DNA of 64,000 nucleotides from Elusimicrobiota bacterium (lineage in GTDB: Bacteria > Elusimicrobiota > Elusimicrobia > UBA1565 > JACRDR01), in contig JAPLKK010000017.1 in NCBI GenBank assembly GCA_026388115.1, forward strand, positions 15,667 to 79,666, read 5' to 3'. Below, in pieces: positions 34,401-54,632 of the stretch; the first letter of the stretch is position 1; each line of letters starts with the position of its first letter. The notes under the pieces are model-generated. The model was not told the origin of the DNA, did no database searches, and worked only from the letters and a program-made list of their open reading frames with translations. The translations under genes and the position numbers were made by a program.

Positions 34401-37400
34401 TGCGGACGCCAACGGCAACGGACAGCTCGACGTGGGCACCGATACGCTGGTCACCAGCGGCAACGACCGGTTCACCAGCGGGTTGGTCACCGTGGGCTTC
34501 ACGCAGTCCCAGGTCATCGCCGCGAGCACGCAGACGTTCTTCGTCTCTGTGGACATTCCGGCCACAGCCATCCCCGGCGATACCTTCGGCGTGGTCGCGC
34601 TCTCGAGCGGCAGCCTCATCGTCGTCGCGCCGAACACGGTCTCGACGACGAGCGTCTCCTTCCCGCTCAAGACGACGCCCGTGCCGATCCAGCAGTATCC
34701 CAACATCATCACCGCTTCGACGGCCTCTTTGGCCCCGGCCGCGATCGACCCGTCGCAGACCAACGTGGGGATGCTGGCCCTCACGCTCAAGACCAACGTT
34801 TCGAACGCGCGCTGGTCGAAGCTGCTCCTCGATCGCGTCGGCGGCCTCGACGCCGACGTCAAGGAGGTCCGCGTCTATTACGACGCCAACAACGTGGGCT
34901 CATGGGACTCGAGGAACGCGAACGCGTATCTTCTCGTCACCTCGACGGGCCAGAGCTTCGGGCTCAAGGGCATCCAGGGTCAGGTGAGCTTGAGCATCGC
35001 CCTGCCGCCGTCGCAGCCGGTGAACTCGACGCCGAAGACGTTCTATATCGTCATCGACATAGCGAACGGGGCCTTGCCGTCGGACTCGATCGCGGTGCGC
35101 ATCCTCAACGCGAACTACCTCACGGTCGACGCCCCCAACACCGTCGCCGCCTTCTCGGCGCAGTCCGGCGCGTCCGTCGTGAACCAGCAGGCCGCGATGA
35201 TGACGGTCGTCGCCTCCACCGGCGTCCTGCCCGCCGTCGTGCGACAGGGCGACTTCAGCGTGCCGTTCGCGCGCTTCGATCTGCAGATGGACCGCTACAC
35301 CGCGCTGTGGACGAAGCTGACGGTCACCGAGGGAGGCACGGCGGCGGACGCCGACGTCAGCAAGGTCAGGCTGTATCTGGCCGCCAGCTCCAGCGAAACG
35401 ACGGTCCAGCCGTTCAGCGACCAGCAGGTGGCCGCGGGCACCTTCGTCTCGGGCCAGGTCATCCTGACCTTCCAGCTCCCGCAGGTCATCTTGTCGACGA
35501 GGACGTTGACGTACTTCCTGACGTACGACATCTCGCCGGTCGCGCAGGCCGGGGTGCTGGCCGGCGCCACGATGAGCGGCCCGGGCTCGTTCGTGCTGGC
35601 CGCGCCCAACGGCGTCAATCCCACCGGCTTCCCGATCCACTCGGGCCTGGCGCTGATCCAGCCGACGGTGACGGGCGTGCTGGCCAGCTTCCAGGACAAG
35701 GCTCCGGCGGGCCTGAAGCAGGGGGCCACCGCCCAGGTGATGATGAGCCTGACCCTTCAGACGACCTCCAACGAGGCCCTGTGGTCCTCGCTCGTCGTGC
35801 AAAAGACGGGCACCGCGCCGGACGCCGACATCCACGCGGTGCGCCTCTTCGTGGACGCCGACGGCAGCGGCGTCCTCAAGCCCGGAGACGCGGAGCTGAC
35901 CTCCGGCGCCGACCGCTTCATCAACGGCTCGGTGACGCTGGCGTTCAACACGCCGCAGGAGATCAGCCCGACGCCGAAGCGGTACCTGCTCGGTCTCGAC
36001 GTGGACCTCCACGCCTCGCCGACGGACACCGTGGGCCTGGCGATCCCGTCGCCCTCCTACTTCGGTCTCGTCGCGCCGAACTACGTCATCAACAGCGGAT
36101 TCCCGCTGCAGTCGTCGAGGATACCGGTCGCCAAGCTCCCGGATATCCTCGACGTGACCTTCACGGACCTGGCGCCGACGGGGGCCAACGAGGGCTCCGA
36201 AACGCTGATGGCGCGGTTGCGGCTGCGCGCCGAGCGCGACAACGCCGTCTTCACGAGCTTGCGCCTGCTCAAGATGGGCTCGTTGCCCGACGTGAATGTG
36301 ACGCAGGTGCGCCTGTATCTCGATGCGAACAACAACGGCGCGGTGGACCCGCAGGACGTGCTCGTGGCGACGGCCGCCTTCTCCAACGGCATGGTCGCGT
36401 TGAGCACGTCGAACGCGATCCTCACCTCGACGCAGACGTACCTGCTGACCTGCGTCCTCGACCCCGGCGCCGCGGTCGGCGCGACGCTGGGCTTGCGCGT
36501 GCCGGACAGCACCTACGTGGGCGCGGCCTTCCCGGACACCCTGTCGGCGCCGGCCTTGCCCTTCTCGACCATCCTCGTCAACGTGCTCGACGCCCGCACG
36601 CCGTCGAAGCCCGTGGTCACGGTGCCCGGCGGGTACTGGGCCGCCTTCGACAACCTGCCGTTCAGCTGGACCTCCCAGGTGGCGCTGGGCTCGATCATGG
36701 ACGTGCAGTACGCCGTCGGCACGGCTTCGACGATGACCGATGTCCTGGCTTGGCAGGACCTGCCGCCGTCGCAGGCGGACGTGACCATCGCCGGGCTCAA
36801 CCTGCAGAGCGGGATCACGTACTTCGTGCTCGTCCGGGCGATCAACGTCATCGGAGGCGTGACGTTCGTCAGCCCCATCGGCGTGTCGCAGGGAGTGCTC
36901 ATCGACTATCAGATCCCGCGGCCGCCCGTGCCCTTGGTCAGCGTGAGCGAAAACGCGGTGCGCATCGCCTGGCCGGCCGTGACGACGGCGGTCGACAGCT
37001 CGACGCTCCCGTCGGGGATCATGGGGTACCTGGTCCAATACCGCACGGGAGCGAGCCCCGTCTGGATCAACGCCAAGACCCAGCTGGCGGTCCCGTCGTC
37101 CATGGCCTTCGGCCCGGCGGCCGCGTGGGCCGCGCGCAAGGCGGCCCAGAACGGCGTCGCGCCGGCGGCGGTCGCGCTCTCGTCGGCGGATCTCATCACC
37201 AACACCAGCTACAATTTCGCTCCGCCGGCCGGCACGGTCTACCTTAAGGCGAGCGCGGTCAGCAACTCCGGACAGATCAGCGCGGACTCGCCGGTGCAGA
37301 AGGTCCAGGTCGGCGCCCTGCCGAAGGGCGGCATCACCAACGTCAGAAACTACCCGAACCCGTTCGACTCGCGCACCGGGGTGACGACGATCAACTTCAC

Positions 37401-37614
37401 GCTGAGCACGGACAGCGACGTGACGATCCGCATCATGACGGTCTTCGGCCAGCAGATCCGAACGATCCACTACAAGGGCTCGGCCGGCTCGGGCAACGAC
37501 GTCCCGTGGGACGGCACCGACGACTCGGGGCGAAAGGTCTCCAAGGGCATCTACCTCGCGGTCATCGAGGGCGGCGGCGCGAGGGTCGTCCAGAAGGTCG
37601 GCATCATCCATTAG
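8953..37614 (+). CDS. Giant cell-surface repeat protein, main portion (9553 aa). Contains Asp-box/BNR beta-propellers, FN3-like domains, five LamG-like domains, nine C-terminal Ca-binding-like repeats, two FN3 domains and a C-terminal FlgD-Ig/Por_Secre_tail-like sorting domain. The same frame is open from about 8707.
   Basis: Uninterrupted 28.6-kb ORF with strong periodic protein repeat structure. Recognisable motifs include the Asp-box S/T-x-D-G-x-T-W, FN3-like TYYWRV, LamG_3-like W.FDEG...DEVR.F.RALSA.EI, and the C-terminal NYPNPF...IY.L..PWDG.D..G..V.KGIYL tail. The stop codon TAG is at 37612-37614. Confidence 0.9.
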   Translation: MPGTMTGSDGTLAAQTLTMTGLNLANSSNTVVCGGFAPCGATNQVIFTASDLAGNVVKLGPYSILLDATTAVAYSTPAAPGLAGFVNVQPNFNWVAPSTPIAAALPPSSAYILQVSNNDPGFSNANLVINISTPISGVGVSLSTAVSPPLSAYVSSFTLTNNTTYYWRVVTLNGGFGWYGPYSSTFSFVTDFSAPTQNGVFTTLSPTGATLTEAQVNTPATSSVTAQIGVQDTISGLAVSSTAVAFAGDGHNYTGAMGGYGVVYSTNAGQSWIDFSSITASRRYDGTVTFGSQLYSFAVYKGALFVSDANTGYLYYSPDGNIWTQVGASQIVPGGLSKPLAVFNGRLFAGDGANGMIYWTAGDTSSWSTANGGVPVGQTIRALAQFSDRLVAADGTNGHIYVSTTGDTWATSQGGQAVGIGAMPALAAYNGQLYAGDSKGNIYFSADASTWTKSNNGLVVGSSISAFAAYNGRLFAADGLNGRVYATSDGVSWSTVNGGVQVTTAPTIGVAALASFNGRLYASAVTGTVSVSTAGGSWWMLNNGYPISPTGGAFWALAPFNGNLVAADAGSVYVIAPVSATLGGADGTGAVQTLTATGLALVNSTRSVVCGGVAPCSATDQVIFTATDRAGNAKPFGPFAVLVDTLTQTLVSTPTFPANGAWVNIQPNFDWIGPSTTPASGLPPGSSYYLQVSNNDPAFAPGNIVISVSTQEYLSATGTSVLASTSLPTAQSGYISSFTLTNATTYYWHVLLGNSVLGTKGPWSQTYSFVTDFAGPAQAGAFLSSSPVLGWIGETQVNPLSNGVTVQVGVQDLLSGMAVSTGSLPFAGDGHDYAGVTAGYGVIYSTSAGQTWIDFSTVTAAAVYTAGNAVTPRLLALAVSSGTIYAAYADNNLPKFYVYHSADGAVWTANNTPSFSYAPQALVPFNGKIFAGFADGSIYYSLNAGTNFSQARPGLTGGLAPIGSNINALVVFNGKLYAGDNNGQVYVSTSGDAGWSATQGGSALSSNGIASLAAFAGRLFAGDRGGRVFATVDGSTWTLMNAGVAVGSNLGSLAAYDNRLFAGDATNGNIYVSTDGGRSWRATNGAVPPTGSAISALSSFSGKLYACDSAGRVIVSTEGYSWMTLNSGYPITGSLSYPAYGLAPFNGKFYVAASSRVFQITPVTANLSGAEGSTAVQTLTASSLRLVTSTTTATCGAAMPCGATNQVLFTASDRAGNAARYGPYAVLVDSTIAVAISTPVYPANQSYVNLQPNFNWNGPSTTTVYGLSQGSAYYLQVSQNDPTFSMGLVISISTPIVNTPQISVSTSLPIAPGAYLSTFTLADNATYYWRVAVANAMDGMFSAWSTSFSFVTNFTAPAAAGVFYSMSPGGQLFGETQIIGIQNGVTAQITVQDANSGLAVSTLNFTGDGHDSVILTVPFGVMYSTTSGQQWIDFSAVTPSNPGVARLYNLTVYNNELYAVDGGGVLYRTVDGAAWYPGINNNWNASVRSMVGFKSAASSTLRLFAGDSNGKIYSSPSPPTQGFATVFSGGSSIGTLATFNGRIYAGDLKTGRIYVSTSGDANAWSATQGGNAVSTTGIQALSTLNGRFFAADKTGSVFVSVDGTTWTLGNIGGAPVGSSITALAPFNGLMYAADAITGKIYSSPDGNTWTTANQGVQVTTSPNVGLQALAVMDGKLYAGDSGGNVWVTVDGSTFTAAYPTPVAGNIGGLAPFNGKLYAADSGNGNVAQLSPVATALGGADGTNAAQVLTARGLNLANSGTVFTCAGVAPCLATNQILFTASNRAANAAKIGPYAILVDAITPVVSLSLPANGTYLNVQPNFNWLGPSTMTAVSLSPGTSYYLQVSADPTFNPANILVSISSPVLPSAGQAISTMAITSDGAYVSTYTLNGATTYYWRVATNSGLYHAVGAFSSTFTFITDFAPPYSSTASFASVSSSGGALAEAQFNDTASGVSAQLAVQDDVALAVSTAAMSFAGDGHDSGLSAGGFGVMVSTNAGATWTDWTVPASSVAVAAPVQAFAVFGGKLYAGGAGSNLYATADGLGWTTKTVATCGGGGTINALAAFRGKLFAGCGGTHGISSDGTSFSAFLAPGKILSFASFNGRLYAGADSQQVSMSTDGAAWWQFSLPLGQTQNSSLAVFRGRLYAGTDSAATRVWHSVDGSTWSKTAGGSAGGAPPAMAVFNGRLYVGGSADTTIRASVDGVNFVPVFTAPFAAGSSNMAAMTVFNGKLYVLDGANKALLWTADGYRWFTSALAVTDAALNALASFNGSLYIGGSSNLYRLQALPAVLAGPDGTTSPQTLSASSLSLAQSSVTTVCNGVYPCAATDQLVFTASDLAGNTALFGPFAVLVDSTSPVAISTPAFPLNGMHVSGQPRLYWLGPSTSVAAGLQPPAAYYLQVAKNDPAFAAGNLVVNIATPVVTSPGDLTANSHYVSTYTLLDNTTYYWRVRAQSGLGTASPWSKAFVFATQFTTPTLSGPFVSNSTGALIPETQFHVLAAGVTAQLTVQDPGGLAFDFVPANRIGTWHFEEAAGALSTDLSGNGNIATLSSPAMWASGYLGTGVAANGNWVDVATPTVAAWSGLTAMAWVYVPSAGLGVVRSSQTVLAGRQFRLEYKVEYRSVGFYADVDPVTGGCSIDEGPAVPLQAAAGTWNHVAFVMDPVNLVNSIYINGVLSRTCSGNPVPGDSSFRFGEDGLSGIGLADAMSGSIDEVSLFSRTLPQPEIAGEMNRKLGFWVYYSTNAGSQWNLVASTAPGNGPYLGSYGVNGSVGPLTVSVAGLSLIQSTNALTCGAVAPCGATNQVKFVVSDLAGNVLSAGPYAILTDSTALSAVPALSYPANGANVGLQPNFDWMGPSTKTAVGLPPGAAFLLQVSQNDVTFAPANVVVSMSTPCIVASTYVPTADATYISTYTLVDNATYYWRVAVQDPVLGTQSPWSSTFSFVLDLTPPAQTGAFTSIDGGLNNLPETTFNTLSAGVTAFITVQDAASGLAVSNTALPLSGDGHDGPASAAGFSVMYSTTAGRLWIDVSTMIVANGGLAVGAKIGALATFGGKLYATDAAGARVYSSGNGGVSWTTVNLPAATTLGPIAVFAGKIYVGDTTTGMIFSSANGLTWTAAAGGAPVSACGTVRSLAVFLNKLYAADNCGKVYLSTDGNGWGIGNNGAAVGASIGALAAFNGKLYAGDANGNVYVTLRGIVWTPTNGGNPVVGSVIALAMFDGRLFAAGAAGDLAFSADGVEWPAVNGGVPVTNSFAALTAFNGKLYGADPATGRLYASPDGNLWVVLNSSAPVGAALGALVPYNGSLYAGDSANGKVYQLAPVPASLAGADGTAAAQALSALALNFTFSTNTQVCGGVQPCGATNQLIFTASDRAGNVTAGGPFAMLVGTPVNSATPTLHVPMDMGYVNVTQPVLSWLHPSTAAYPGLTIFHLEVSADPSMSPLLVLVSTNVGFGVPAVTYPLSSVVLPAATTYYWRVRGETFSGVVGPYSAVRSFQTVLSPPALTSFVHLNSMGAPLNEYQASDLALGVTAQVTAQDGQTGLNLYGTPDTTAVAFYPFEDLVSSAARNAFNNGNPAVLMGGAVPAPGRWGVGVALDGASGTLRVSDAPNLDVFDRITVEAWIKPAAPVTADTTFVRKAAANGTSGWALEYLGGQLAFWTANGGAANCSAGNAACAPVYLNGGEWYHLVGTLDGATLSLYLDGVLVSSRNVTTGPGEPHAPIYLGSSQGTGRFFAGTIDDVRLFYEGRGSAVVLQDFRSPTSPVAVFSSDAGNTWSIVSTTYPVTAGMPFLAVGGSQGTTGAQAFQLVNFNVVQSTTAAVGAAATNQVKFFASSVGGYANTAGPYGVLYDAVANIAIDTPTSPANGVYVSSPSPTFVWNAPNLAGVTLYELRVSADPSFSSLVINNSTPAVTGVAVGTYSAVEVLGPATTYYWQVRSRTTLNRTGPWSIPYSFVTDFTPPGLLNFNTVGSTGAVFIETQVQVSTAVVADLTVFDGLAGLSAAAGFSASFSTNAGQGWNVVTSTVGGAGPYLNVTWPEGGNAGIFSLVNMPVGQSTSTAVCGGVPQPCGATNQVVFYLRDRAGNLSVGGPYAILADTTAAVAISSPAAPAAGAWSGLNPGTAFVWSTPSTYTLSGLQSFSLEVSSNASFAPLSFIVSTPVVTGALAASYVSTQMLPEGTTIYWRVRVLDSLGNFSPYSAVSTFLVDSGSPLPLSYGVVSSTGGILTEADPLGSFTVSVALSAQAAVSGLPATGASVIVSTDGGAHWSTFGSTLTVLSSTLEAGVISAKVFNGSAYAGTQGNARLFRSPDGRSWPPVAAFSNNVSVNSLEVFNGRLYAGTGGGLAGGRVYSSADGNVWSPAFTPSGASSVAALAAFNGRIIAAYDAFVAGSTNGVSWSKLATMPNGPATALAVFNGKAYAACGPYVCSSYGGAAWSSTPRFSGSSNLSAIAAFNGRIYVAGDIGVQSTAGDDAWPWRSELSVPGETFSSLAVADGRLYAGSAQNGYVYATVDGTSWARVLSGTGETGMSALQAFNGKLYAGTAPNAKILELSPYAAVSGVDGAVTPQALIATGLAVAASTSTALCGGDWPCSANNQTRFAVSNEAGNVAFLGPYAVIVDTVIALARPLLVEPTVEGMTLLQPEFRWTVSTAIAAGNLTGFEVQLAGAPSFNTLLLDQPVANMFLPSPLILAASGVYYWRVRSFDVFGASSSFSDAATVIIDTQAARGSQFLTYNNLGVTFPEGGLMDLATGVTAQLNVQEGVSGLERAGPGPLAPVSGTLLLWHLDEGAGSTVGDAGTWGNGGTIYGAPVWTNGRFGKALRLPAPASASNYLAAASQPSLSAANVTLEAWINTQSTQAAVLQSQGGAYGITIGMGGAAGDVGATFNGVSADCHRRVDDGAWHHLAATCDFGSARFYLDGALCANVGAPSSMPSAGALSVGLRFDGTQPYAGLLDELRVVNRALSADEIYRDATYGAPYTAFVSTNGGQNFLVVATTFPVTPGAPYVTLTGVDGSTSTEVLQARNLSLVQSTTLSSGALATDQIIWRVANRAGAITAIGPYAVLVDSTGLAALPKLTYPAHGAYSNVQPNFAWVGPSTTTAAGLPASSGVVLQVSSNDPAFSLASMVVNISTPVVVASTVVPTADGAYFSTFTLTDATTFYWHVGVLNAALGTYGPWSQTFSFVTDLTKPVQTGSFSSFNSVQASLGETFWNDLSAGVTAQITVQDGGSGLALSAGALAFAGDGHDGPGLSGGYSVMYTTMAGQQWVEWPTFTVGTVGTSAIDSLAVFKGKLYAGYGTGGKIYSSPNGAFWTQVFAPGVSDSVNTLAEFNGRLYAGAGGSSALVYASSNGVNWSQVFASADAAVQSLAAFNGKLYAGTASNGNIYASTDGVIWAQVFAGNSSPLSALAAFNGRLYAGDAASVYASADGVTWTAVSLPGGVGPAAFAAFNGKLFAGTNGGGTNHIFSSPDGVAWTPVLSLAGEGVTACAVTNGKLDCATGAGNLYASPDGTVWAQTLSSAMTNQGPIYALAAFNGKLNAGAGTGNVIQLAPVAAAISGTDGTLASQNLSSMLNLTLSTNTAVCAGSWPCGATNQVLFTASDRAGNVTRSGPFALLVDTPVDSATPTLHLPMDMGYASQPSPVFTWVHPSTTAFRGLSVFHFELANSASMSPLLVNVATPVVFGMPAPSYALAAALAPATTYFWRVRAETFAGVLGPYSSTYSFQTAFSSPAASNFVHFSSTGGALTALQDSDLSVGVTVQITAVDLQTGLSFWGSPDATAMLFYPFEDVVNPPALNAFNGVNPLSFVGGAAVGPGRWGKGAVLNGANGTLTTPNTPGLQDLTGSITLETWIKPSSLVSNDTTFIRKGGNVFGWSLEYLGGLLVFWLGNGAGPTCGVNAVCVNAVLAGGEWYHLAGAYDGTAMSLYVDGKLMAVTPYSSGGGFNSDALYVGSYQGTSRFFGGVIDDVRVFAAGRTAAQVLYDFRSPTPPLALYSTSAGNAWSVVSATYPAYPGLPFISLTGLQGTTSAQPVQLVGFSVVQSTSVLPGAGATNQVKFLFADVAGNAVVAGPYGMIFDSVASVALDTPSAPGNGVYVSSPSPNFYWQAAGLAGVTLYEMRASIDPAFGPLSISISTPATTGVFIGTYNAVEVLAPSTTYYWQLRSRTTLNRTSAWSTAYSFVTDFVPPALATYTTVGSYGAVLTEAQTQISTSVAVRIQAFDGLAGLAGSGFRVVYSSNAGASWSLVSSTAPSAGPYLQVTWQDGQSSGTLSLVNLFLGQSTSTTICGGAAPCAATNQVLFYINDRGGNLSIAGPYAILADTTAALAISAPAVPAAGAWVTANPGAAYVWNTPSTSTLSGLAAFYLEVAANPSFNPLVFTVSTPAVPGALAAAYVSTHTLAEGATIYWRVRSLDSLGNFSPYSAPSTFLVQSGAPNPLAYGVVSSTGGILTEADALGNYTAAVTLAAQDSLSGLSAGGASVVVSINAGNDWYALAGTFTALSGTAETGVLSLAYFGGYLYAGTQGTARVYRSPDGRNWYPVYAFGGNSAVPSLAVFNGQLYAGTSGGMSGGRVFSSPDGTQWSSAYAPAGVASISALAAYDGRVYATLDDGWIAASTNGVNWAKMALLPNGAATALTVFKGKLYATCGGAYLCSSYGGTTWSSTQRFSSFTVLDALASFNGRLYVGGDGGIASAPDDLTWPWRFEVWTGGETVASFGTVGGRLYAATAQSAALYAVIDSGHWAQVLSGTGESDIAALQAFNGKLYAGTLPHGFVLELSPLAALMPGGDGATGVQSLRASGLTLTQSTTTALCGGAVPCGATNEVRFTAANMAGNVRFAGPYAVLIDTVIATARPMLVEPVVEGFSLKVPEFRWTVSTAVSMGNLTGFEFQLANAPDFIALLWAQRTMDRALTLPFYLGEGGKYYWRVRAFDVAGTTSTFSDVSTVFIDTFPPIGNSFAAFTSTGLAVPEGTLIDLASGVTAQLTVQDTVSGLRLSGPGPAAVIPGTALLWRFDEGTYSTATSNSAWPGQKVYDSGPWGSTGAVAGLPVWVNGRFNKALRFSGTGADWVYGIWPFLSLSSPTVEAWINTLSTSGYVLSSQGGAYSVLIGSAGLSAGDIGAIFNTVLVDCGRRVDDGGWHHVAATDDGADLSFYLDGALCGSTPAPASLPAPGTLDVGVNIDGSGAFSGVIDEVRIIDHPLGAAEILRDATFGVPYAAAFSTNAGRSFQLVTSTYPVTSTSPYVSVSGADGATSPQALQICNLTLTQSTNTKTGAQGTNQMVFVASDRSGNLAKFGPFTILVDSLIGQPTAYYPAPGSWVNRLSPALTWAEANALPRHEVLLSRDNFLTLVMDSTTANSDILLSGYPTRLTLAQGGTYQWKVRATGLTGNKSLYSAANQFTVDAVAPTAGGFGTYSSTGAFLDQTQWSNRYGANTVQARFQDTGPSGLAMSTGSFGVMYSTTAGLNWVDWSQLVSTLAVQGATAVSALASFDGSLYAGSSGNGQVVTSADGVSWTPAFGFPGQSGVLSLQPFAGQLFAGVSPGHQVWASADGASWAQAFDTGGGSAVESMVLFDGKLFMGTDNNASIYSSVDGSSFTLAAAIGGQTDVLAFAVFDGHLYAGTAGGNGAQLWRSPDGARWQLAWPPAGNTTGETRVRSLAVFNGKLYMGTAPGGLILASVDGLTWPGTALSGTGATDVPAMTSTNGKLYASLAAPGGMLYATADGVNWRLTLSGTSDNGFASLTSFNGGLYAGGRSSGWVYAMPPVVSAFTGVDGSIGVETMTATGLALTQSADGTRCSGGVGSCAATNQVLFSASDRAGNAVSYGPYSVLVDSSVPQPVIAALTATSTDSVRVDLYPVPDLLSGTSDYQYYLSGVSDFSDAVTTTPFVTTSSYTFRGLGEATTYYIRAVARDRVGSVSPYSVLAATMTDGVLYSSYTDITSSSAYQSTDQPMLRLMLWTEVGRTALLNRLEVHMDTAANPAAPLSSPLGAGNDADILIAKLYADAQGLGVFDSHAVQLGEAPMSNGRAIIDLSGNVQAIQSSTRTYFVVYKVADAAAINDRLDAVLLDDNALGFANSYRALAAYSVSSLNTYPVISSGTVVVDGPNNLYVDALSVAPQTAAPGQSGIPMMRLRMNTDHGTSALDHVVFDVTGSAVASTDVASIAIYRDDNGDGVYEPGIDGLVTSGNDLFSNAVASVAFVTSLHVPISSRTINSGTQDYFVLINMALGAQPSDLVGVSVTASSSVVTVGPDTPILSASPLSSSQVRLSLPNRLYLRTSSVAPPSVKQGQKYAVLMTSMNVVCGLPACANPGATTVTGLQVNRTGTAQDGDVAAVEVWKSANPGSPFNPSADYPLGTGAFVGGTSFVAFSTQTLTSPTTSVFFIVYTLSVNANAGATVGASLTNNTYVTVTNPDTTVTGAFPMPTVSTTSLIAQTVNKLLVTNSQDVTVAAQFLQARADLPLLRLDVHADQNTVSWTGLTLRSTGTAMDSDIAAVKVYADANGNGQLDVGTDTLVTSGNDRFTSGLVTVGFTQSQVIAASTQTFFVSVDIPATAIPGDTFGVVALSSGSLIVVAPNTVSTTSVSFPLKTTPVPIQQYPNIITASTASLAPAAIDPSQTNVGMLALTLKTNVSNARWSKLLLDRVGGLDADVKEVRVYYDANNVGSWDSRNANAYLLVTSTGQSFGLKGIQGQVSLSIALPPSQPVNSTPKTFYIVIDIANGALPSDSIAVRILNANYLTVDAPNTVAAFSAQSGASVVNQQAAMMTVVASTGVLPAVVRQGDFSVPFARFDLQMDRYTALWTKLTVTEGGTAADADVSKVRLYLAASSSETTVQPFSDQQVAAGTFVSGQVILTFQLPQVILSTRTLTYFLTYDISPVAQAGVLAGATMSGPGSFVLAAPNGVNPTGFPIHSGLALIQPTVTGVLASFQDKAPAGLKQGATAQVMMSLTLQTTSNEALWSSLVVQKTGTAPDADIHAVRLFVDADGSGVLKPGDAELTSGADRFINGSVTLAFNTPQEISPTPKRYLLGLDVDLHASPTDTVGLAIPSPSYFGLVAPNYVINSGFPLQSSRIPVAKLPDILDVTFTDLAPTGANEGSETLMARLRLRAERDNAVFTSLRLLKMGSLPDVNVTQVRLYLDANNNGAVDPQDVLVATAAFSNGMVALSTSNAILTSTQTYLLTCVLDPGAAVGATLGLRVPDSTYVGAAFPDTLSAPALPFSTILVNVLDARTPSKPVVTVPGGYWAAFDNLPFSWTSQVALGSIMDVQYAVGTASTMTDVLAWQDLPPSQADVTIAGLNLQSGITYFVLVRAINVIGGVTFVSPIGVSQGVLIDYQIPRPPVPLVSVSENAVRIAWPAVTTAVDSSTLPSGIMGYLVQYRTGASPVWINAKTQLAVPSSMAFGPAAAWAARKAAQNGVAPAAVALSSADLITNTSYNFAPPAGTVYLKASAVSNSGQISADSPVQKVQVGALPKGGITNVRNYPNPFDSRTGVTTINFTLSTDSDVTIRIMTVFGQQIRTIHYKGSAGSGNDVPWDGTDDSGRKVSKGIYLAVIEGGGARVVQKVGIIH
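16480..17140 (+). other. LamG/concanavalin-A-like lectin domain 1 (Laminin_G_3-like) inside the giant protein.
   Basis: Translated segment GTWHFEEAAGALSTDLSGNGN...GTWNHVAFV...IYINGVLS...SIDEVSLFSRTLPQPEIAGE. This matches the LamG_3 pattern W.FDE..G....D.SGNGN....W..G..G.AL.FDG...L.DE+..+.RALS..EI. Confidence 0.65.
19590..20210 (+). other. LamG-like domain 2.
   Basis: VAFYPFEDLVSS...RWGVGVALDGASGTLRV...ITVEAWIKP...EWYHLVGTLDGATLSLYLDGVL...GTIDDVRLFYEGRGSAVVLQDF. Confidence 0.65.
23270..23850 (+). other. LamG-like domain 3.
   Basis: LLLWHLDEGAGSTVGDAGTWGNGGTIYGAPVWTNGRFGKALRL...VTLEAWINT...AWHHLAATCDFGSARFYLDGAL...LLDELRVVNRALSADEIYRDAT. Confidence 0.7.
26265..26880 (+). other. LamG-like domain 4.
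   Basis: AMLFYPFEDVVNPPALNAF...RWGKGAVLNGANGTL...ITLETWIKP...EWYHLAGAYDGTAMSLYVDGKL...GVIDDVRVFAAGRTAAQVLYDF. Confidence 0.65.
29935..30545 (+). other. LamG-like domain 5.
   Basis: ALLWRFDEGTYSTATSNSAWPGQKVYDSGPWGSTGAVAGLPVWVNGRFNKALRFSG...PTVEAWINT...GWHHVAATDDGADLSFYLDGAL...VIDEVRIIDHPLGAAEILRDAT. Confidence 0.65.
32700..36600 (+). repeat. Nine tandem in-frame repeats of roughly 140-150 aa in the C-terminal third of the giant protein. Each carries an EF-hand/FG-GAP/dockerin-like DxNxDG..D loop, which predicts Ca-binding beta-sandwich-like modules of unknown family.
   Basis: Recurrent pattern A.W..L.L...GT..D.DI..V.VY.DANGNG.LD.GTD.LVTSG.D.F..G.V.L.F...Q.I....+TYF...DI...A.PGDT.G. Examples: YRDDNGDGVYEPGIDGLVTSGNDLF, YADANGNGQLDVGTDTLVTSGNDRF, FVDADGSGVLKPGDAELTSGADRF, YLDANNNGAVDPQDVLV. 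Confidence 0.6.
36600..37300 (+). other. Two fibronectin-III-like domains that precede the sorting domain.
   Basis: PSKPVVTVPGGYWAAFDNLPFSWTSQ...GITYFVLVRAINVIGGVT and PVPLVSVSENAVRIAWPAV...GYLVQYRTG...YNFAPPAGTVYLKASAVSNSG. Confidence 0.5.
37320..37614 (+). other. C-terminal sorting domain of the FlgD-Ig-like / Por_Secre_tail (T9SS-type CTD) kind.
   Basis: PKGGITNVRNYPNPFDSRTGVTTINFTLSTDSDVTIRIMTVFGQQIRTIHYKGSAGSGNDVPWDGTDDSGRKVSKGIYLAVIEGGGARVVQKVGIIH. This is the canonical YPNPF..T.I.F.L.....V.I.I....G..V..L....AG.....WDG.D..G..V..G.Y shape of about 90 aa at the extreme C-terminus. Confidence 0.7.
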
Positions 37615-37775: not shown

Positions 37776-39410
37776 GTGCCGCGCTCCCTCCTCCTCGCGA
37801 GCCTCACCTTCCTCGGCGGTTTGATCGCCGCCCCCGCTTTTGCGCAGGTTTCCGCGATCAATCCCGGCCAACTTTACTCCGCCGGCGGCGGCGCCCGCGG
37901 CCTCGCTATGGGAAGCGCGCTCACCAGCGTCGCGGGCGACATCTCCTCGCTGTACTACAATCCCTCCGGCCTCGCGACCCTGAGCGGCCGCCAGATCACC
38001 GCGATGCAGGCGTCCCTCTACGACGGCGCGGCCTACCAGTACCTCGGCTACGGTCAGGGACTGCGCCGCAGCCTCGGCGGCTTCGGCCTCGAGGTCATGC
38101 GGCTCGGCATCTCGGGCGCCGACGGCCGCGACGCCAGCAACCTCGGAACCGGGTCTTTCGGCTACAGCGAGCAGAGCATCGGCGCGGGCTTCGGCATGCG
38201 CGGCGTGCTCCACCCCGACCTGTCGGTGGGCATGAAGGTGCATCGGCTCACCCGCAGCCTCGGCGGCTCCTCCGACAACCTGACCGGCGTCGACTTCGGC
38301 GGGATGTACGGCCCGATCTTCGGCGAGCGGCTGACCCTCGGCTTCATCGTCCAGAACGCGCTGCAGAAGAGCCAGGGCGACACCTCCGACAAGCTCGCCG
38401 CGCTGACCCGCGTGGGCGCGGCCTATAATCTCGCCGAGGGCTTCCTGCTCGCCGCCGACGTCTCGAGCGACAAGGACTTCCGCATCGGCACCGAGTACAA
38501 CTGGGGCATCGCCACCTTCCGCGCCGGCTATACCGGCGCCGGCGTGAGCTTCGGCACGGGCCTGCTGTTCCGCCAGGCGCTCGTCCTCGACCTCGCCATG
38601 GTGAACAGCTCGGTGCTCGGCAACTCCACCCGCGTGTCGCTGGGCTATAAGTTCCGCGAGGCCGCGGCGAAGCGCAACGTGCAGGCGATCGCCGAGGAGT
38701 ACCTGGCGAACGCGCTGCTCGAGCTGAAGGCCCGCGACTACGTGCGGGCGTCGAAGGGGCTCGACGCCGCGCTGGGCATCAGCCCGCGCCTGGGCGAGCT
38801 GGGCTGGAAGGTGCGGGCCCAGCGGCTGCGCAGCCTGGTCATCGAGCTCGACCTCGCCAACCTCCCCGAGTTCCAGGAGATCTACAAGGCGCAGACCGCC
38901 CCGGCCCTGCTGGCGCACGAGGGCGTGATGGCGCTGCTGGACGAGGACAACGGGCGCGCCATGCTCTTCGTCCACGCGGCCCTCGGCCAGAACTCGCGCG
39001 AGAGCGCCTACCGCAAGCTCCTCGAGGCGATGTCGCGCCTGACCAAGGGCGAGATCCACCGCGAGGACATCCTCCCGCCGTCGGCGCTGGTCGAGCGCCG
39101 CCTGCAGCGCGCCGTGGACCAGATCTACGGCGGCCACTACGACACGGCCATCGTGGACTGCAAGGACGCGCTGGCCCTGGACCCGAACAACGCCACGGCC
39201 TGGATGAGGCTGGGCTCGGCGTACTTCGCCGCCGGCGACAAGTCCGACGCCGCCACGGCGTACCGCAACTCGCTGAGCCTCGACCCGACCAACGAGAGGC
39301 TCCGCCAGTTCATGCAGCAGCAAAGGATGCCGCTCTACACCCCGCGCGTGGCACCGCTTCCAAGCGGTGCCATGCTCGGGCTCATGGTGAGCCGCTTGGA
39401 GGTTCGATAA
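37776..39410 (+). CDS. Outer-membrane PorV/PorQ-family-like beta-barrel (T9SS-associated shuttle-like) with a C-terminal TPR-repeat region. GTG start; cleavable signal peptide ...APAFA/QV.
   Basis: Signal peptide MPRSLLLASLTFLGGLIAAPAFA. The N-terminal motif SAGGGARGLAMGSALTSVAGDISSLYYNPSGLA resembles the PorV N-terminal signature (GMG....A...DA....YNPA.LA). Gly/Tyr-rich alternating strands end ...SLGYKF. The C-terminal roughly 240 aa is helical, with a TPR-like stretch NATAWMRLGSAYFAAGDKSDAATAYRNSLSLDPTN. Family assignment is by motif only. Confidence 0.55.
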   Translation: MPRSLLLASLTFLGGLIAAPAFAQVSAINPGQLYSAGGGARGLAMGSALTSVAGDISSLYYNPSGLATLSGRQITAMQASLYDGAAYQYLGYGQGLRRSLGGFGLEVMRLGISGADGRDASNLGTGSFGYSEQSIGAGFGMRGVLHPDLSVGMKVHRLTRSLGGSSDNLTGVDFGGMYGPIFGERLTLGFIVQNALQKSQGDTSDKLAALTRVGAAYNLAEGFLLAADVSSDKDFRIGTEYNWGIATFRAGYTGAGVSFGTGLLFRQALVLDLAMVNSSVLGNSTRVSLGYKFREAAAKRNVQAIAEEYLANALLELKARDYVRASKGLDAALGISPRLGELGWKVRAQRLRSLVIELDLANLPEFQEIYKAQTAPALLAHEGVMALLDEDNGRAMLFVHAALGQNSRESAYRKLLEAMSRLTKGEIHREDILPPSALVERRLQRAVDQIYGGHYDTAIVDCKDALALDPNNATAWMRLGSAYFAAGDKSDAATAYRNSLSLDPTNERLRQFMQQQRMPLYTPRVAPLPSGAMLGLMVSRLEVR

Positions 39411-41884
39411 TGGAGTTCCTGCTCATCGCCGCGATGCCGCTGATGTTCCTGCTCCTGGCGACCGTGATGATGGTCGTGAGCGAGACGTCCGGCTTCTTCA
39501 CCTTCACGCGCATGTCGGCCCGCCAGCGGGCGACCAACCGGGTGCTGCTGGGCTACGTCCAGCGCCAGCGCATGGCGCGCCGCCAGCTCTCCTTGCGCAG
39601 CCGCCAGCTCGCGGGCCTTTCGGCGAGCCTGGCGGGCTCCAACCGCGAGCTCGAGCAGCTCAACAGCCTCAAGTCGCGCTTCTTGTCGGTGGCCGCGCAC
39701 GACATGCGCACGCCGCTGGCCTCCATCCGCGGCTTCGCCGAGAGCCTCTCGGGGCAGAAGATGCTGACGCCCAAGGACCGCCGCTACGTCGGCAACATCA
39801 TGACGGCCGCGGACCAGATGGGGCGGCTGACGGCGGACCTGACGGACCTGTCGATCATCGAGGCCGGCAAGCTCAAGATGGAGCCGGCGCCCTTCGACTA
39901 CGCCGCGCTCATCGAGGAGCTGTGGGGACAGCTGAGCCTGGTGGCCGAGCGCAAGGGGGTGCGCCTCATCGCCTCGGAGCTTCCGCGCGGCCTCGTCCTC
40001 GCCGGCGACCGCTTCCGCATCGGTCAGGTCGTCAGCAACCTCGTCGGCAACGCGATCAAGTTCACCCCGGCCGGAGGCGTGGTGGACCTGCGGGTGCGCG
40101 AGGCGGCGTCGGGCGTGATGACCGTCGTCGCCGACACCGGCCCTGGCATCCATCCCTCCGAGCAGAAGCGCATCTTCGAGAAGTTCTATCAGGCGCGCTA
40201 CGGGGCGAGCGCCGCCGCCGCCAAGCAGGGCTGGGGCCTCGGCCTCTCCATCGCCTTCGAGATCGTGCATGCCCATCACGGCGAGATCGGCGTCGAGTCG
40301 CCGGGCCTGGGCCGCGGATCGAAGTTCTGGTTCTTCATCCCGCGCGAGCCGGCGGCGCGCAGGCCCGGGGCGGGGCTGTTGCGCGCCCTGGCGGCGGCGG
40401 CGCTCCTGCTCGCGTTCGTCTTGAGGACGGGAGCGCAGGCGCAGACCCTCCCCTTGGAGGACAAATCGCGCTACGACAAGTACCTCGAGCAGAAGGTCGA
40501 GTCGGTGCTGACCGACATGCTCGGCCCCGGCCGCGCCAAGGTGGTCGTGGACGCCACGGTGGACTTCACGCGCATCGAGAAGTTCACGGTCGCCGGGGGC
40601 GAGGGCAAGGGCAAGGATAAGGCCGGCCAGGAAGCCCTGTACGCCTGGCAGAACATCGTCGCCCAGACCAGCGGCCCCAACGAGTTCCTGCCGGGCGTGC
40701 CGGTCCATGAGGGCGGCCCCGGCGGGGCGCCGACCTCCTATGAGCGTCAGTCGGGATTCACCCCCGAATTCCTTAAGAAGCTCTCGGTGACGCTCATCGT
40801 GGACCAGAGCGTCCCGGAAAGGCAGGTGGGCGACATCCAGGACATCGTCACCAACCTCCTGCAGGTGGACGAGGCCCGCGGCGACGCGTTGACGGTCGTG
40901 CGCACGACCTTCCCGCCTCCCTGGAAGACGATGTGGTATTCGCAGGACTCGGTGAGCATGGTCTTCCGCTACTCGATCCTGGGCCTGTTGTGCCTGGCGA
41001 CGCTCACCGTGGTGGCCTTTTGCTTCTACCGCCTCGCGGGGGCCATGGACGCCATGGCGCGCAGCCAGGCGAACTACGGCTTCGACCTGGGCCAGGAGGC
41101 CGCGGGATTGGGCGAGCCGGCGGCCGAGCCGCCCGCCATCGAGGCCGAGCAGAAAGAGGAGCCGCAGGCCCTTGCGGGCCCCGAGGGAGAGCAGATCGTC
41201 ATCGCGGTGCGCGAGGACCAGATGCCCGTGCTGGTGACCATGATGCTGGGAGAGGAGCCGGAGAACATCGCGCTGGTCATGGCCCACCTGGACCCCGAGC
41301 GCCGGCGCGACTTCATGCGCCAGATGCCGCGCGAGCTGGAGGCGAAGGTGCTGGGCAGCCTCGCGCAGGTGCGCTTCGTGGAGGAGAGCCTGGTCCAGTC
41401 TATAAAGGAAGAGATCGAGCGCCGGCTGGCGGGGGCGGTGGGGGGCCTGCACAGCGTCTATCAGATCGTCGACCAGGCGGACCCATCGGCCAAGCGGGAG
41501 CTGTTGGAGATCCTGCGGCGCACCGACCCCGACCTGGCGAAGGCCGTCCGCTCGCGCATCCTGCTCATGGAGGACCTGCTGCGGCTCAGCGCCGACGGCT
41601 GGAGCCTCCTCACCGGGCGGGTGCGCCTGGAGGACTGGGCCTCGGCGCTCAAGGACGCCTCGTCCGAGCTCAAGGACGCCTTGCGGTCCCAGATGCTGCC
41701 GAGGACGTGGGCGATCCTGGAGCAGGTGGCCGAATCGGGCGAGGCCACCCCCGAGAAGCTCGCCGCCGCCCAATCGGCCATCCTCGACGAGGTCTCGCGG
41801 ATGATCTCGGCGAACCTCATCGAGGACCCGCGGCCGACCGAGGAAGCGCCGCAGCGTTTGGAAGCGCCGGCGGTAGGAGCATAA
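39410..41884 (+). CDS. Chimeric membrane protein. An N-terminal TM is followed by a histidine kinase (HisKA plus HATPase_c), then a TM and a FliF/YscJ-type ring-building (RBM3-like) periplasmic domain, then a TM and a FliG-like domain (N domain plus C-terminal torque helix). The start overlaps the upstream stop (ATAATG).
   Basis: Kinase part: His[15 protein letters not shown]; HATPase N-box [24 protein letters not shown]. FliF-like part: [29 protein letters not shown] (compare Salmonella FliF IEAILSPIVGNGNVHAQVTAQLDF), LSVTLIVDQ, and [13 protein letters not shown] preceding the [26 protein letters not shown]. FliG N-like: [25 protein letters not shown]. FliG C-like: [27 protein letters not shown] (compare FliG ALKGASEELREKIFKNMSKRAAEMLREDLE). 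There is no in-frame stop between the parts. Confidence 0.7.
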
Positions 41885-41887: not shown

Positions 41888-42844
41888 ATGGCGAACGAGC
41901 CCACCAAGAAAGCGGCGTCGTTTCTGGCCTCCTTGCGCGGCGGCGCGCGGGGAGCGGCGGGGGGGGCGGCGGCCGCGGGCGGCGCCCCGCCCGAAGAGCT
42001 GGTCCGTCCGCTGCAGCGGCGCGTCGACGAGCTCGAGAAGCGCGTGCAGGACGTCTTGAAGGCGGCCGCGGGACCCGAGGAGGGCGAGCCTCCGCGCGCG
42101 CCGACGGAGCTGATGATGTACATCCACGCTCGCACCGAGCTCCTCGAGCGCAAGCTGCAGGAAGCGCAGGCCGAGGCCCTGCGCGCGAACCTCCTGCTGC
42201 ACGAGCGCGAGACGGCCCAGCGGCAGGCGCAGAAGGAGGTGGAGGAGCTGTTCCGCACCATCAAGGAGCACGAGCGCGCCGCGCGCTACGACGGCGCGCT
42301 TCGCGAGCAGCTATCGTCGGCCCAAAGGAAGATCGCGGAGCTGGAACGGAAGGTCGGGGGAGGGGAGCCGCCGTCGTCGGCGCCTCCCGCGCCGCCTGCT
42401 GAGGCCCAATTGGCCACAACCGTCCGCGACGTCGACTCTATGGCGCTGCTCGTGCTGACGGCGAAGCTCGCCGATCTGGAGCGGGAACTCGAGGCGGCGC
42501 GGCGGGAGAGGGATGAGGAGCGCGCGCGCAGGACCCGGTGGGAGCGCGAGACGGCCGCGACGCTGGCCCAAGCCCATTGGAAGAAGCCCACCAACATCGA
42601 GCTCACGGTCGAGGCCGCGCTCGAGACGATGGCGCTGGCCTTGCGCGAGCGCGAAGACACCGAGCGGGAGCTGAAGGAGGCTATGGCTCAGGCGGAGAGT
42701 CAACCGCCGGACGCCGGTCCCGATCCCGTGCTGCGCGCCCGCATCACGGGCGCGCAGGAGCGTCTTGACCGGCTGTCGCGGACGCTGGACGAGCAGATGC
42801 ATCTGGTCCAGGCGTGGATCGCGGGGAATAAACAGGCAGGGTGA
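41888..42844 (+). CDS. Charged coiled-coil protein with an Ala/Gly-rich N-terminus. A FliH/FliJ-like role is speculative.
   Basis: ATG at 41888, 4 nt after the upstream stop. Heptad-rich E/R/A/L sequence (LQRRVDELEKRVQDVLKAAAG..., RELEAARRERDEERARRTRWERE). No globular domain recognised. Confidence 0.5.
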   Translation: MANEPTKKAASFLASLRGGARGAAGGAAAAGGAPPEELVRPLQRRVDELEKRVQDVLKAAAGPEEGEPPRAPTELMMYIHARTELLERKLQEAQAEALRANLLLHERETAQRQAQKEVEELFRTIKEHERAARYDGALREQLSSAQRKIAELERKVGGGEPPSSAPPAPPAEAQLATTVRDVDSMALLVLTAKLADLERELEAARRERDEERARRTRWERETAATLAQAHWKKPTNIELTVEAALETMALALREREDTERELKEAMAQAESQPPDAGPDPVLRARITGAQERLDRLSRTLDEQMHLVQAWIAGNKQAG

Positions 42845-44408: not shown

Positions 44409-44545
44409 TCAGTTAATTTTTCGCTTATGAGGAAGCTCTGTCAAGTGGGGAATTGTCAGCGCTAGTCAGCGGCGCTGCAATCGCCGAGGCCCCTTCCTCG
44501 ACCCGGGGTGAAGGAAGTTGTAGTATTGTCGAGAGCGGAAATGAC

Positions 44546-54245: not shown

Positions 54246-54269
54246 TCACACCGTTCTGCTTGTCGTTCT

Positions 54270-54310
54270 CCCTCTCCCGACGTTCGGGAGAGGGCCGGGG
54301 TGAGGGCAGG
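54270..54310 (+). repeat. GC-rich palindromic REP-like element, copy 2: stem ccctctcccg / cgggagaggg with an acgtt loop, followed by ccggggtgagggcagg. Intergenic, downstream of the DAHP synthase gene.
   Basis: Copy 1 tgttcCCTCTCCCcGcGTTCGGGgAGAGGGtaGGGTGAGGG aligns with copy 2 cgttctCCCTCTCCCGaCGTTCGGGAGAGGGccgGGGTGAGGG. Confidence 0.7.
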
Positions 54311-54352
54311 TTTCCGTTTCTTTTCTTCTCCAAGCTTTTCCTTCGGGCCGTG

Positions 54353-54473
54353 TCGGATATTGGTCCGGCGGAGACGCTCGCCGCGCTTTGGGCGCGGCTC
54401 GCTCGGTTACGGACGGCGCGGCTAGATGTGAGAACGCGCCGTCCTCCACACGCCCCGGCGGACCAATATCCGA
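54353..54473. repeat. MITE-like nested hairpin element: 19-bp terminal inverted repeats (18 of 19 complementary) flank an 83-nt core that contains a second 10-bp inverted repeat.
   Basis: tcggatattggtccggcgg at 54353-54371 pairs with ccggcggaccaatatccga at 54455-54473. The inner pair is ggacggcgcg ... cgcgccgtcc. Confidence 0.6.
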
Positions 54474-54612: not shown

Positions 54613-54632
54613 ATACGCACTAAGAGCGTAGA

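Follow-up and report, generated by a model that had tools for sequence, protein, structure and literature searches.

Why would a histidine kinase share a polypeptide with parts of a flagellar rotor? The question is raised by an open reading frame (ORF) at 39410..41884 (+ strand) in a stretch of 64,000 nucleotides (hereafter, the window) from an Elusimicrobiota bacterium (assembly GCA_026388115.1, contig JAPLKK010000017.1, positions 15,667 to 79,666 of the forward strand). A sequence-only reading of this DNA had described a single ORF fusing a histidine kinase to FliF-like ring-building and FliG-like rotor domains, and had suggested that the fusion could couple signalling directly to a rotary element. 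Here we report that the fusion is real and that its gene belongs to a module recurring across the Elusimicrobiota. Our preferred reading, to which we would grant an even chance, is that free-living Elusimicrobiota have a conserved envelope machine that is proton-driven and non-flagellar, and that the ORF encodes its rotor subunit, to which, in this lineage, the histidine kinase of the machine has been joined genetically.

The ORF runs from an ATG to a stop codon at 41882-41884, encodes 824 amino acids (aa) and contains zero internal stops, and every motif string quoted in the sequence-only reading was present in its translation. The window has a G+C content of ~69%, and long spurious ORFs are common there. 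In the frame of the fusion ORF, the G+C content at third codon positions (GC3) was 0.88-1.00 in each 150-nucleotide (nt) segment across the full gene, including 40300-40400 and 41150-41200, where frameshift artefacts had been suspected; since GC3 was uniform at both junctions, nothing pointed to a change of frame. Searching 5.8 billion proteins retrieved a 98%-identical homologue of 824 aa from a separate ENA contig, as well as ~49 further full-length homologues (808-849 aa, 41-55% identity) with the identical set of Pfam domains. The named sources of the full-length homologues were nearly all annotated as Elusimicrobia or Elusimicrobiota. In addition, scanning the GTDB species representatives gave 27 loci, and the kinase and FliF/FliG parts were in one frame in 16 of them. 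Note that the named loci belonged to Elusimicrobiota, save for one Curvibacter-binned contig with a short partial match to query residues 1-82 only. The independent 98%-identical contig, the ~49 homologues and the 16 in-frame species representatives, together with the steady GC3, ruled out a frameshift or mis-assembly, indicating that the 824-aa fusion ORF is real, uninterrupted and conserved. The ATG of the ORF overlaps the stop codon of the upstream gene for a PorV-like protein (TAATG), and a gene for a coiled-coil protein begins 4 nt past its stop; this tight spacing of the three genes is an operon arrangement. The fusion protein itself is a new domain architecture assembled from known families.

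Hydropathy analysis gave three hydrophobic segments in the 824-aa protein (residues ~3-24, 320-345 and 517-541), in agreement with the topology proposed earlier, namely N-terminus outside, a first transmembrane segment (TM1), kinase in the cytoplasm, TM2, ring-building domain in the periplasm, TM3 and FliG-like part in the cytoplasm. TM1 (residues 3-24; 39416..39481, + strand) had a hydropathy peak of 2.61 and is followed by positive residues, which places the N-terminus outside. The cytoplasmic kinase core (39671..40348, + strand) was identified by Pfam as HisKA (residues 88-153; 59.8 bits against a cut-off of 26.9) and HATPase_c (residues 199-313; 86.4 bits, cut-off 26.4), the latter with N, G1 and G2 boxes, so that the N-terminal half is indeed a histidine kinase. 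In an alignment of 31 sequences, the phospho-acceptor H97 (motif HDMRT), N214, D242/G244/G246 and G274-L279 were invariant, and the family profile matched histidine kinases in the PDB down to E=7e-49. The fusion kinase has no extracytoplasmic sensor domain. As judged from these motifs, it is a sensor-less class I kinase (HisKA plus HATPase_c) with its catalytic motifs intact. Intramembrane-sensing kinases of the BceS/LiaS type also have no extracytoplasmic sensor and must read a membrane partner, as would the kinase described here; as far as we could find, no kinase of this type is known to form part of a rotor protein or to be joined to one.

Downstream of TM2 lies a periplasmic FliF RBM3-type domain (residues 346-510; 40445..40939, + strand), as assigned by Pfam, a family profile and Foldseek. 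YscJ_FliF_C scored 34.1 bits (Pfam cut-off 23.8), with the best stretch at residues 454-501. When a profile of the periplasmic domain, made from 16 sequences, was compared with the PDB, the matches were FliF chains only (E=2e-8 to 8e-6), and they consisted of two collinear pieces on either side of a ~65-residue insertion. The insertion (residues ~392-457) is situated at the position of the FliF beta-collar, is shorter than that in Vibrio FliF (chain residues ~306-417), and has a conserved W413 as well as conserved LPG and SYER. An AlphaFold2 model of residues 320-824 had a mean predicted local distance difference test score (pLDDT) of 80, with ~40 in the insertion. The modelled periplasmic domain has the order alpha-beta-beta, insertion, beta-beta-alpha-beta, and is followed by a long TM helix (TM3, residues 517-541; 40958..41032, + strand; hydropathy 2.22) and a confidently folded FliG part. 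Foldseek comparison of this model with the PDB ranked FliG at the top (E ~4e-11), and FliF RBM3/collar was matched at E ~1e-5 to 1e-4 with target template-modelling scores (TM-scores) of 0.55-0.59 (6sd1/7cg7/8z4g); SpoIIIAG (E=0.08) and PrgK/EscJ (E ~0.1) were far behind FliG and FliF. Profile and structure comparison, on which the earlier assignment was to stand or fall, therefore gave significant matches to both FliF and FliG, and the RBM3-like segment was borne out. RBM1 and RBM2 were not found, as had been noted earlier, and the ~165-residue periplasmic region is fully explained by RBM3 and the insertion.

Between TM3 and the FliG part there is an acidic, low-complexity linker only (residues ~550-600), which was variable and gapped in the 31-sequence alignment and modelled with a pLDDT of <50. 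It leads to FliG_M (ARM_M; residues 608-676; 41231..41437, + strand; Pfam 37.6 bits, cut-off 25), which is followed by FliG_C with the torque-helix equivalent (residues 702-804; 41513..41821, + strand; 53.0 bits, cut-off 23.3). The family profile matched T. maritima FliG_MC (1LKV) with E=6e-32 over profile positions 600-798, and even the window sequence alone matched it with E=3e-21, covering chain residues 9-218, that is, the middle and C-terminal domains. In Foldseek comparisons, the modelled FliG_M had a TM-score of ~0.8-0.87 to 4qrm/3soh and the modelled FliG_C one of 0.82-0.93 to 1qc7, with a root-mean-square deviation of 1.2-1.3 A. The sequence-only reading had placed a FliG N-domain-like segment here and had considered most of the middle domain to be missing. 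Both points have to be revised, because the segment in question, an ARM repeat carrying the EHPQR motif, is FliG_M, and this domain is present in full. FliG_N was not found in the protein (15.4 bits, below the cut-off of 25), and that match falls on the FliG_M stretch. On the other hand, the segment likened to the torque helix does lie in FliG_C, although its charge pattern is non-canonical.

Conservation in the 31-sequence alignment pointed to further details of the FliG part. The Gly-Gly linker (G678-G679), aligned to VGG of T. maritima FliG, and N619 of FliG_M were invariant, as were many other positions in the periplasmic and FliG parts. The EHPQR motif, which contacts FliM, is degenerate; it reads EEPEN here and E-[DE]-P-x-N in the family, the equivalents of H, Q and R160 being replaced. 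Among the torque-helix charges K264, R281, D288, D289 and R297, only the R281 equivalent (K/R) is conserved, and D288/D289 are replaced by Q and a hydrophobic residue (V/M). Note that FliG residues are numbered as in E. coli, and these positions are approximate. The earlier proposal that the machine has no C-ring remains plausible, given this degenerate motif and neighbourhoods devoid of fliM and fliN (see below), but the reason offered for it, a missing middle domain, was wrong.

TM2 (residues 320-345; 40367..40444, + strand) resembles a signal peptide, ending in AQA before Q at a candidate signal peptidase I site. Unfused FliF-FliG proteins start at the TM2-equivalent position with a classical signal peptide, for example MRLAGLFFAFALPAAAQ followed by TIPLE. 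In the fused sequences, a site with small residues at -3 and -1 (AXA-type) after the hydrophobic core was kept in 49/49, although the rule used to call the site is crude and the region is Ala-rich; the n-region was positively charged (mean net charge +3.2, n=49), and Pro or Gly was present at -4 to -7 of the site in 40/49. TM2 is thus what was once the cleavable signal peptide of a FliF-FliG protein encoded on its own, and retention of these features in the fused proteins suggests cleavage by signal peptidase. Signal peptidase I may cut between A345 and Q346, parting a two-TM kinase from a mature RBM3-TM-FliG protein, in which case the covalent kinase-rotor link may exist in the nascent chain only. 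The earlier statement that the kinase is physically joined to the rotor therefore holds for the reading frame, but perhaps not for the mature protein. Cleavage after membrane insertion would leave the fusion to provide co-insertion and 1:1 synthesis of kinase and rotor subunit without a permanent covalent link.

The kinase-rotor gene belongs to a module that recurs across the Elusimicrobiota. Gene order was compared by tblastn of the window proteins against all fetched loci, with ORF checks, and by gene calls and Pfam annotation from public assemblies; greedy longest-ORF clustering of the neighbourhoods was set aside since it was confounded by long antisense ORFs in high-GC DNA. In the window and 16 further loci (type A), the order is giant protein with C-terminal sorting domain (CTD), PorV-like protein with tetratricopeptide repeats (PorV-TPR), fused kinase-FliF-FliG, coiled coil, MotA and MotB. 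Three loci (type B; L011, L026 and L031) share this order, but have one gene for the kinase and another for FliF-FliG, with an ATGA overlap between the two; because 24 contigs gave one of these type B FliF-FliG proteins (P0125), the split is real. Seven loci (type C) have PorV-TPR, kinase (~313 aa), MotA, FliF-FliG (~500-535 aa), coiled coil and MotB, with a CheY-like receiver after MotB in two of them (L015/L016). The remaining arrangements are represented by single loci, namely FliF-FliG, coiled coil and kinase (type D; L032), two tandem FliF-FliG paralogues (type E; L033), and a distant, kinase-less one with a 16,931-aa giant protein, a PorV/FadL-like-TPR protein, FliF-FliG, MotA and MotB, and a PilZ protein nearby (type F; L034). 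Regarding L033, a groundwater contig, the paralogues (562 and 565 aa) lie at 6034-11211 with MotA and a faintly FapA-like protein between them, which suggests duplication of the rotor subunit. The protein of L034, whose module variant spans 1-19481, was also found on a 2.88-Mb contig.

These arrangements place the fusion in context. In the unfused ones the kinase stays in the cluster at differing positions, with five gene orders overall. The sequence-only reading had regarded the fusion as highly unusual; it is instead one of several arrangements of a conserved module in which the kinase is usually a separate neighbour. Since sister lineages encode kinase and FliF-FliG separately, the fusion is derived (a 'Rosetta-stone' event). 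When an RBM3-TM-FliG_MC profile was run with HMMER against 1.84 billion representatives, 171 clusters were obtained at E<=1e-30; of the top 150, most were 480-700-aa proteins matched end to end. More than 100 clusters (50% identity) consist of stand-alone RBM3-TM-FliG_MC proteins, indicating a sizeable family of which the kinase fusion is one branch. Among the distant members, those with informative source names were two, both from Elusimicrobiota.

The functional argument is carried for the most part by the motA/motB, PorV-like and giant genes, which the earlier description had left out. MotA (247 aa, 4 TM; 45479..46222, + strand; Pfam MotA_ExbB) and MotB (46238..46936, + strand; Pfam MotB_plug 41.3 bits, OmpA 75.1 bits) are encoded 3.6 kb downstream of the fusion ORF. 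In the PDB, MotA was matched best by flagellar MotA/PomA structures, along its entire length (E=5e-30 to 1e-19), and the NCBIfam scores were 132 bits for PomA vs 20 bits for TolQ, all of them under the equivalog cut-offs. Equivalents of P173 and P222 are invariant in MotA, while MotB has the channel Asp (D27 in TYGDMMSYL), the plug and an OmpA-like peptidoglycan-binding domain, and matched the NCBIfam models MotD, MotB and MotS. These features mark MotA/MotB as a flagellar-type stator. Charge co-variation between MotA (90/98) and FliG (280-289) across the arrangement types was also considered. In type C, MotA K98-D/E99 stands opposite FliG D/E280-K281 as a possible swapped pair, but the fused-type loci do not fit, and no conclusion was drawn. 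As a separate observation, MotA of L034 retains the canonical R90/E98 pattern (ARTDGFLSLE).

The gene directly upstream of the fusion ORF (37776..39410, + strand) encodes a 544-aa protein with a signal peptide, a beta-barrel (residues ~30-293) and TPR (~296-515, predicted to be periplasmic). It is PorV/PorQ-like: NCBIfam PorV_fam scored 64.8 bits, under the cut-off of 90, and TPR models of Pfam were matched as well. Its AlphaFold2 model (pLDDT 85) consisted of a beta-barrel followed by TPR repeats, and the best Foldseek matches were chain F of the T9SS (type IX secretion system) translocon entries 8gl6 (1.3e-10; CTD substrate bound) and 6h3i (3e-9), which we take to be PorV from its size and fold, and then FadL. 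In nearly all loci, a PorV-like gene immediately precedes the gene for the kinase or the rotor. Further upstream, a giant surface protein of at least 12,500 aa is encoded at 104..37614 (+ strand) by two ORFs (104..8968 and 8953..37614), the frame being open at the window start. The protein consists of beta-propeller, Ig and LamG-type repeats and a T9SS-type CTD (~37351-37599; the last ~85 residues), for which TIGR04183 passed marginally (25.0 bits, cut-off 23), FlgD_ig scored 28.9 bits (cut-off 27) and Por_Secre_tail was under its cut-off (20.7 bits vs 27). A homologous CTD was detected upstream of the PorV-like gene in 17 loci. Around 8850-8870 the giant gene has an apparent frameshift, where GC3 shifts frames and the repeat motif (…NGKLY…YQYAPVPGT…) carries on in the new frame; either an indel from the assembly of repeats or a genuine frameshift could explain it. 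The rotor gene is always followed immediately by the coiled-coil gene (41888..42844, + strand in the window), which encodes a cytoplasmic protein of 318 aa (homologues, 260-836 aa) with a conserved N-terminal KAASFLASLRG motif and without any Pfam, NCBIfam or PDB match.

Candidate receivers for the kinase were found near the module, none of them universal. They comprise a receiver-GAF-histidine kinase in the window, response regulators with a GGDEF domain (RR-GGDEF), CheY-like proteins and a winged-helix protein with a doubtful receiver. At least 6 loci have an RR-GGDEF gene 1-2 kb downstream of motB, encoded on the opposite strand (L006:15328-16254, L009:15711-16943, L026:13142-14116, L027:15152-16087, L028:15386-16399 and L031:15994-16968, all - strand), and the recurrence of these genes points to cyclic di-GMP (c-di-GMP) as output of the module kinase in many lineages. 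An RR-GGDEF near the module recalls the tactile signalling from motor to c-di-GMP. A winged-helix (Trans_reg_C) protein is usually encoded after MotB in type A, in at least 11 loci. Its N-terminal half (L010:14117-14845, L013:13960-14619 and equivalents) is receiver-like, scores below the receiver model and is possibly a pseudo-receiver; the L010 copy seems to be without the phospho-acceptor Asp. The receiver-GAF-histidine kinase hybrid of the window (42744..44408, - strand; Pfam Response_reg, GAF, HisKA and HATPase_c) is a lineage-specific insert with 61%-identical copies at the same position in the closest relatives (L004 and L022), and may be a phospho-partner of the fused kinase. Its stop codon (42744-42746) lies inside the convergent coiled-coil gene, whose stop ends at 42844, so that the two genes overlap by ~100 nt at their 3' ends.

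Is the protein then part of a flagellum? Genes for the export gate (FlhA/B, FliPQR), ATPase, rod, hook, filament and FliM/FliN were absent from the 64-kb window and from seven Pfam-annotated neighbourhoods. In a survey of 219 Elusimicrobiota genomes, Uzun et al. (bioRxiv 10.1101/2022.07.08.499144) found a complete flagellar set in few only, and reported that most free-living Elusimicrobiota have no structural flagellar genes, yet possess motAB and fliG homologues whose role is 'unclear'. Doud et al. described flagellar genes as absent in Elusimicrobia, and flagella or motility genes are unmentioned in Meheust et al. 2020. The present cluster is very probably the source of the orphan motAB/fliG seen by Uzun et al. 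We searched the literature on the fusion, on FliG/MotAB in Elusimicrobia and on repurposed flagellar motors, and found neither the protein nor the cluster described; Uzun et al. give neither.

We conclude that the module plausibly encodes a flagellum-independent rotary machine, and offer the following functional model as a hypothesis. In the inner membrane, the RBM3 domains would assemble into a FliF-like ring underlain by one of FliG, without a type III export gate, rod or FliM/FliN C-ring. MotA/MotB anchored to peptidoglycan would use the proton gradient to push on FliG_C, so that the ring is turned or strained. The periplasmic face of the ring would be coupled, probably through the TPR, to the PorV-like barrel, which would grip the CTD of the giant adhesin, and the work of the motor would then move or tension the giant surface protein, by analogy with Bacteroidota gliding/T9SS. 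The sensor-less kinase at the rotor would read the state of the motor (assembly, load or stall) by membrane contacts and signal to receivers encoded nearby; in many lineages such a receiver is an RR-GGDEF, which implies that c-di-GMP is the output. Rotation, outer-membrane coupling and the role of the kinase are what we infer. The sequence-only interpretation was correct in outline, but some of its domain labels were mistaken and it overlooked the operon context that gives the finding its significance.

A broader proposal, which we make tentatively and with somewhat less confidence than the reading of the ORF itself, is that free-living Elusimicrobiota have rotary machines of an unrecognised, envelope-spanning class. 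Flagellar-type MotAB would turn a FliF-RBM3/FliG ring without a type III core, rod or filament, with mechanical output via a PorV-like barrel and a giant adhesin (2,000 to >16,000 aa) and with a rotor-resident kinase signalling to c-di-GMP or transcription. Such a rotor-stator module, independent of the flagellar export apparatus, would be either a stripped-down descendant or else related to the pre-flagellar motor.

Comparison with known systems helps to define what is new here. RBM3, a complete FliG_MC with its Gly-Gly linker, and full-length MotA/MotB with plug, channel Asp, P173/P222 and OmpA-like domain are shared with the flagellar rotor and stator. Unlike there, RBM1, RBM2 and FliG_N are missing, FliF and FliG are in one polypeptide, no genes for export gate, rod, hook, filament or FliM/FliN are nearby, the EHPQR motif and the R90/E98-R281/D288/D289 pairs are not conserved, and the module comes together with a kinase, a PorV-like barrel and a giant adhesin. 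The closest precedent for the fusion is the Chlamydiaceae FliF-FliG_M protein CT719 (Bergeron 2016, PMC4768692), a natural FliF-FliG fusion of ~330 aa with RBM2, an RBM-like domain and FliG_M only; it has no SpoIIIAG-like RBM3, is discussed as injectisome-associated, and no MotAB partner is reported for it. Both are single polypeptides of flagellum-less hosts in which the periplasmic region of FliF is reduced and which also have a TM helix and a FliG part in the cytoplasm, but the protein described here differs by having RBM3 only, FliG_M plus FliG_C, the kinase and adjacent MotAB. Engineered FliF-FliG fusions supported a rotating flagellum in Salmonella (PMC4768692) and assemble rings in Vibrio (PDB 8z4d/8z4g), indicating that a 1:1 fused rotor is mechanically feasible. 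Those, however, are laboratory constructs of full-length FliF plus FliG inside a complete flagellum.

SpoIIIAG and the SctJ proteins (PrgK, EscJ) likewise have an RBM fold in a periplasmic ring-forming domain that is membrane-anchored at one or both ends, and SpoIIIAG also has an RBM with a beta insertion, but these families have neither a FliG domain nor a MotAB partnership, and their matches were far weaker than those of FliF. With the T9SS/gliding apparatus of Bacteroidota (GldLM, PorV, SprF/SprB), the module shares a giant adhesin with a T9SS-type CTD, an inner-membrane ion-driven motor of the 5:2 type and an associated two-component system (PorXY in Bacteroidota), and its outer-membrane barrel has PorV as best structural match; in Bacteroidota, outer-membrane proteins are attached via a periplasmic extension to a motor-driven track (PMC12635249). 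Here, however, the motor is MotAB with a FliF/FliG ring in place of GldLM with GldKN, the PorV-like barrel bears its own TPR domain, and the phylum is Elusimicrobiota. A SprA-like translocon, PorU and GldJ/K/L/M/N were not found in the examined neighbourhoods, the genomes not having been searched. The Zorya anti-phage system was considered and rejected, because MotA gave no PADLOC ZorA match, is only 247 aa and has no long ZorA tail; only MotB matches ZorB.

A rotor that moves or tensions a surface protein is not the only way to read this gene content. Rather than move an adhesin, the ring and MotAB could transmit proton-motive force to the outer membrane so that the giant T9SS-CTD protein is exported, folded or anchored through or onto the PorV-like barrel, as a functional analogue of GldLM/PorLM, with the kinase regulating expression only. 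T9SS-type CTD and PorV-like barrel are cargo tag and cargo shuttle of a secretion system, T9SS requires a 5:2 motor with which PorXY two-component proteins are reported to associate, RBM rings of the SpoIIIAG and SctJ type serve transport machines, and a winged-helix regulator is encoded after motB in at least 11 loci. We nevertheless regard such an energiser as doubtful, since the SprA-like translocon, PorU and GldK/N are lacking in every examined neighbourhood, a FliG torque domain and a plug-bearing, peptidoglycan-anchored stator are hallmarks of rotation against a ring, and type C loci do not have the giant gene next to the others. It overlaps our model, from which it is computationally inseparable here. 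The kinase could also be the centre of the system, FliF/FliG/MotAB being its input device for proton-motive force, ion flux or envelope strain and the output being transcription or c-di-GMP without surface mechanics. Flagellar stators of Caulobacter and Pseudomonas act as mechanosensors feeding c-di-GMP, a kinase without its own sensor domain must read a membrane partner, and this one is kept in the cluster through five gene orders with RR-GGDEF, CheY-like or RR-GAF-histidine kinase genes nearby. However, the module exists without a kinase in L034, indicating that the motor is the older core and the kinase an accessory, and >100 clusters of stand-alone FliF-FliG proteins are known; furthermore, the conserved outer-membrane and surface partners would have no obvious role in a cytoplasmic-membrane sensor. 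A pure sensor therefore seems rather unlikely to us.

Far less probable is a divergent true flagellum, in which the protein would be MS-ring plus FliG and the remaining flagellar genes would be elsewhere in the genome. FliF RBM3, FliG_MC and MotAB are all flagellar families, a few Elusimicrobiota genomes hold complete flagellar sets, and engineered FliF-FliG fusions function in Salmonella and form rings in Vibrio. RBM1 and RBM2, which hold the export gate, and FliG_N are missing, though, the EHPQR motif and torque charges are degenerate, the neighbourhoods hold PorV-like and giant adhesin genes but no flagellar gene, and most free-living Elusimicrobiota have motAB and fliG without structural flagellar genes. 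An artefact or relic, be it a frameshift or mis-assembly, the remnant of a flagellum decaying into a pseudogene or a MotAB defence system resembling Zorya, is effectively refuted. Long spurious ORFs in high-GC DNA, the apparent frameshift in the neighbouring giant gene and the ZorB matches of MotB would speak for it, but the fusion keeps one frame with uniform GC3, recurs in frame in 16 species representatives and on the separate 98%-identical contig, and its catalytic and structural residues stay invariant across homologues with an overall identity of 41-55%, while MotA resembles ZorA in neither model match nor tail.

Several observations count against the rotary machine that we favour. The giant CTD gene is not next to the module in type C loci, there is no MotAB within 10 kb in L032, and the kinase is absent from the distant L034 variant. 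At the torque interface, the MotA E98 equivalent was R/K in 20/25 and A/G/Q in 5/25 family sequences, never acidic, and the R90 equivalent was H/Q in fused-type loci, R being found only in type C and in L034; given that the MotA/FliG charge pairs are not conserved, the MotA-FliG torque interface is assumed, not demonstrated. The insertion resembling a beta-collar is short and its model has low confidence, contact between TPR and RBM3 is a conjecture, and an axial or periplasmic connector from ring to outer membrane was not identified. A few Elusimicrobiota do possess full flagellar gene sets, and the absence of flagellar genes rests on ~10 kb around the loci and on the literature, not on whole genomes. 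The proposed machine is so far known from genes and models.

If the rotary machine exists as proposed, the core of the flagellar motor works, or at least is kept by selection, outside the flagellum, although the MotAB-FliG pair has so far been studied essentially only within the flagellum, atop a type III secretion core. The module would thus be a concrete system for the question of motor-first vs secretion-first in flagellar evolution. It would also account for the orphan motAB and fliG reported as enigmatic in Elusimicrobiota, and would be a candidate apparatus for motility or surface sensing in a phylum that is widespread and largely uncultured; how the 'magnetotactic' Elusimicrobiota, which are without flagella, move about is still in question (Uzun et al., bioRxiv 10.1101/2022.07.08.499144). 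In addition, a naturally hard-wired link between a rotary motor and two-component or c-di-GMP signalling would bear on mechanical surface sensing.

Other genes in the window are less closely connected with the module. Between the receiver-GAF-kinase and motA lies a gene for an FkbM-family methyltransferase (44453..45406, + strand); this slot is variable, and L004 and L022 hold a glycosyltransferase and a dicarboxylate symporter there instead. After motB, tryptophan and aromatic amino-acid genes begin at 46933 (+ strand). Amid the aromatic amino-acid genes, a low-GC island (54000-56000; 0.625 vs ~0.70) encodes a DUF4172-Fic-HTH protein (ORF 54633..55739), and is possibly a horizontally acquired insert.

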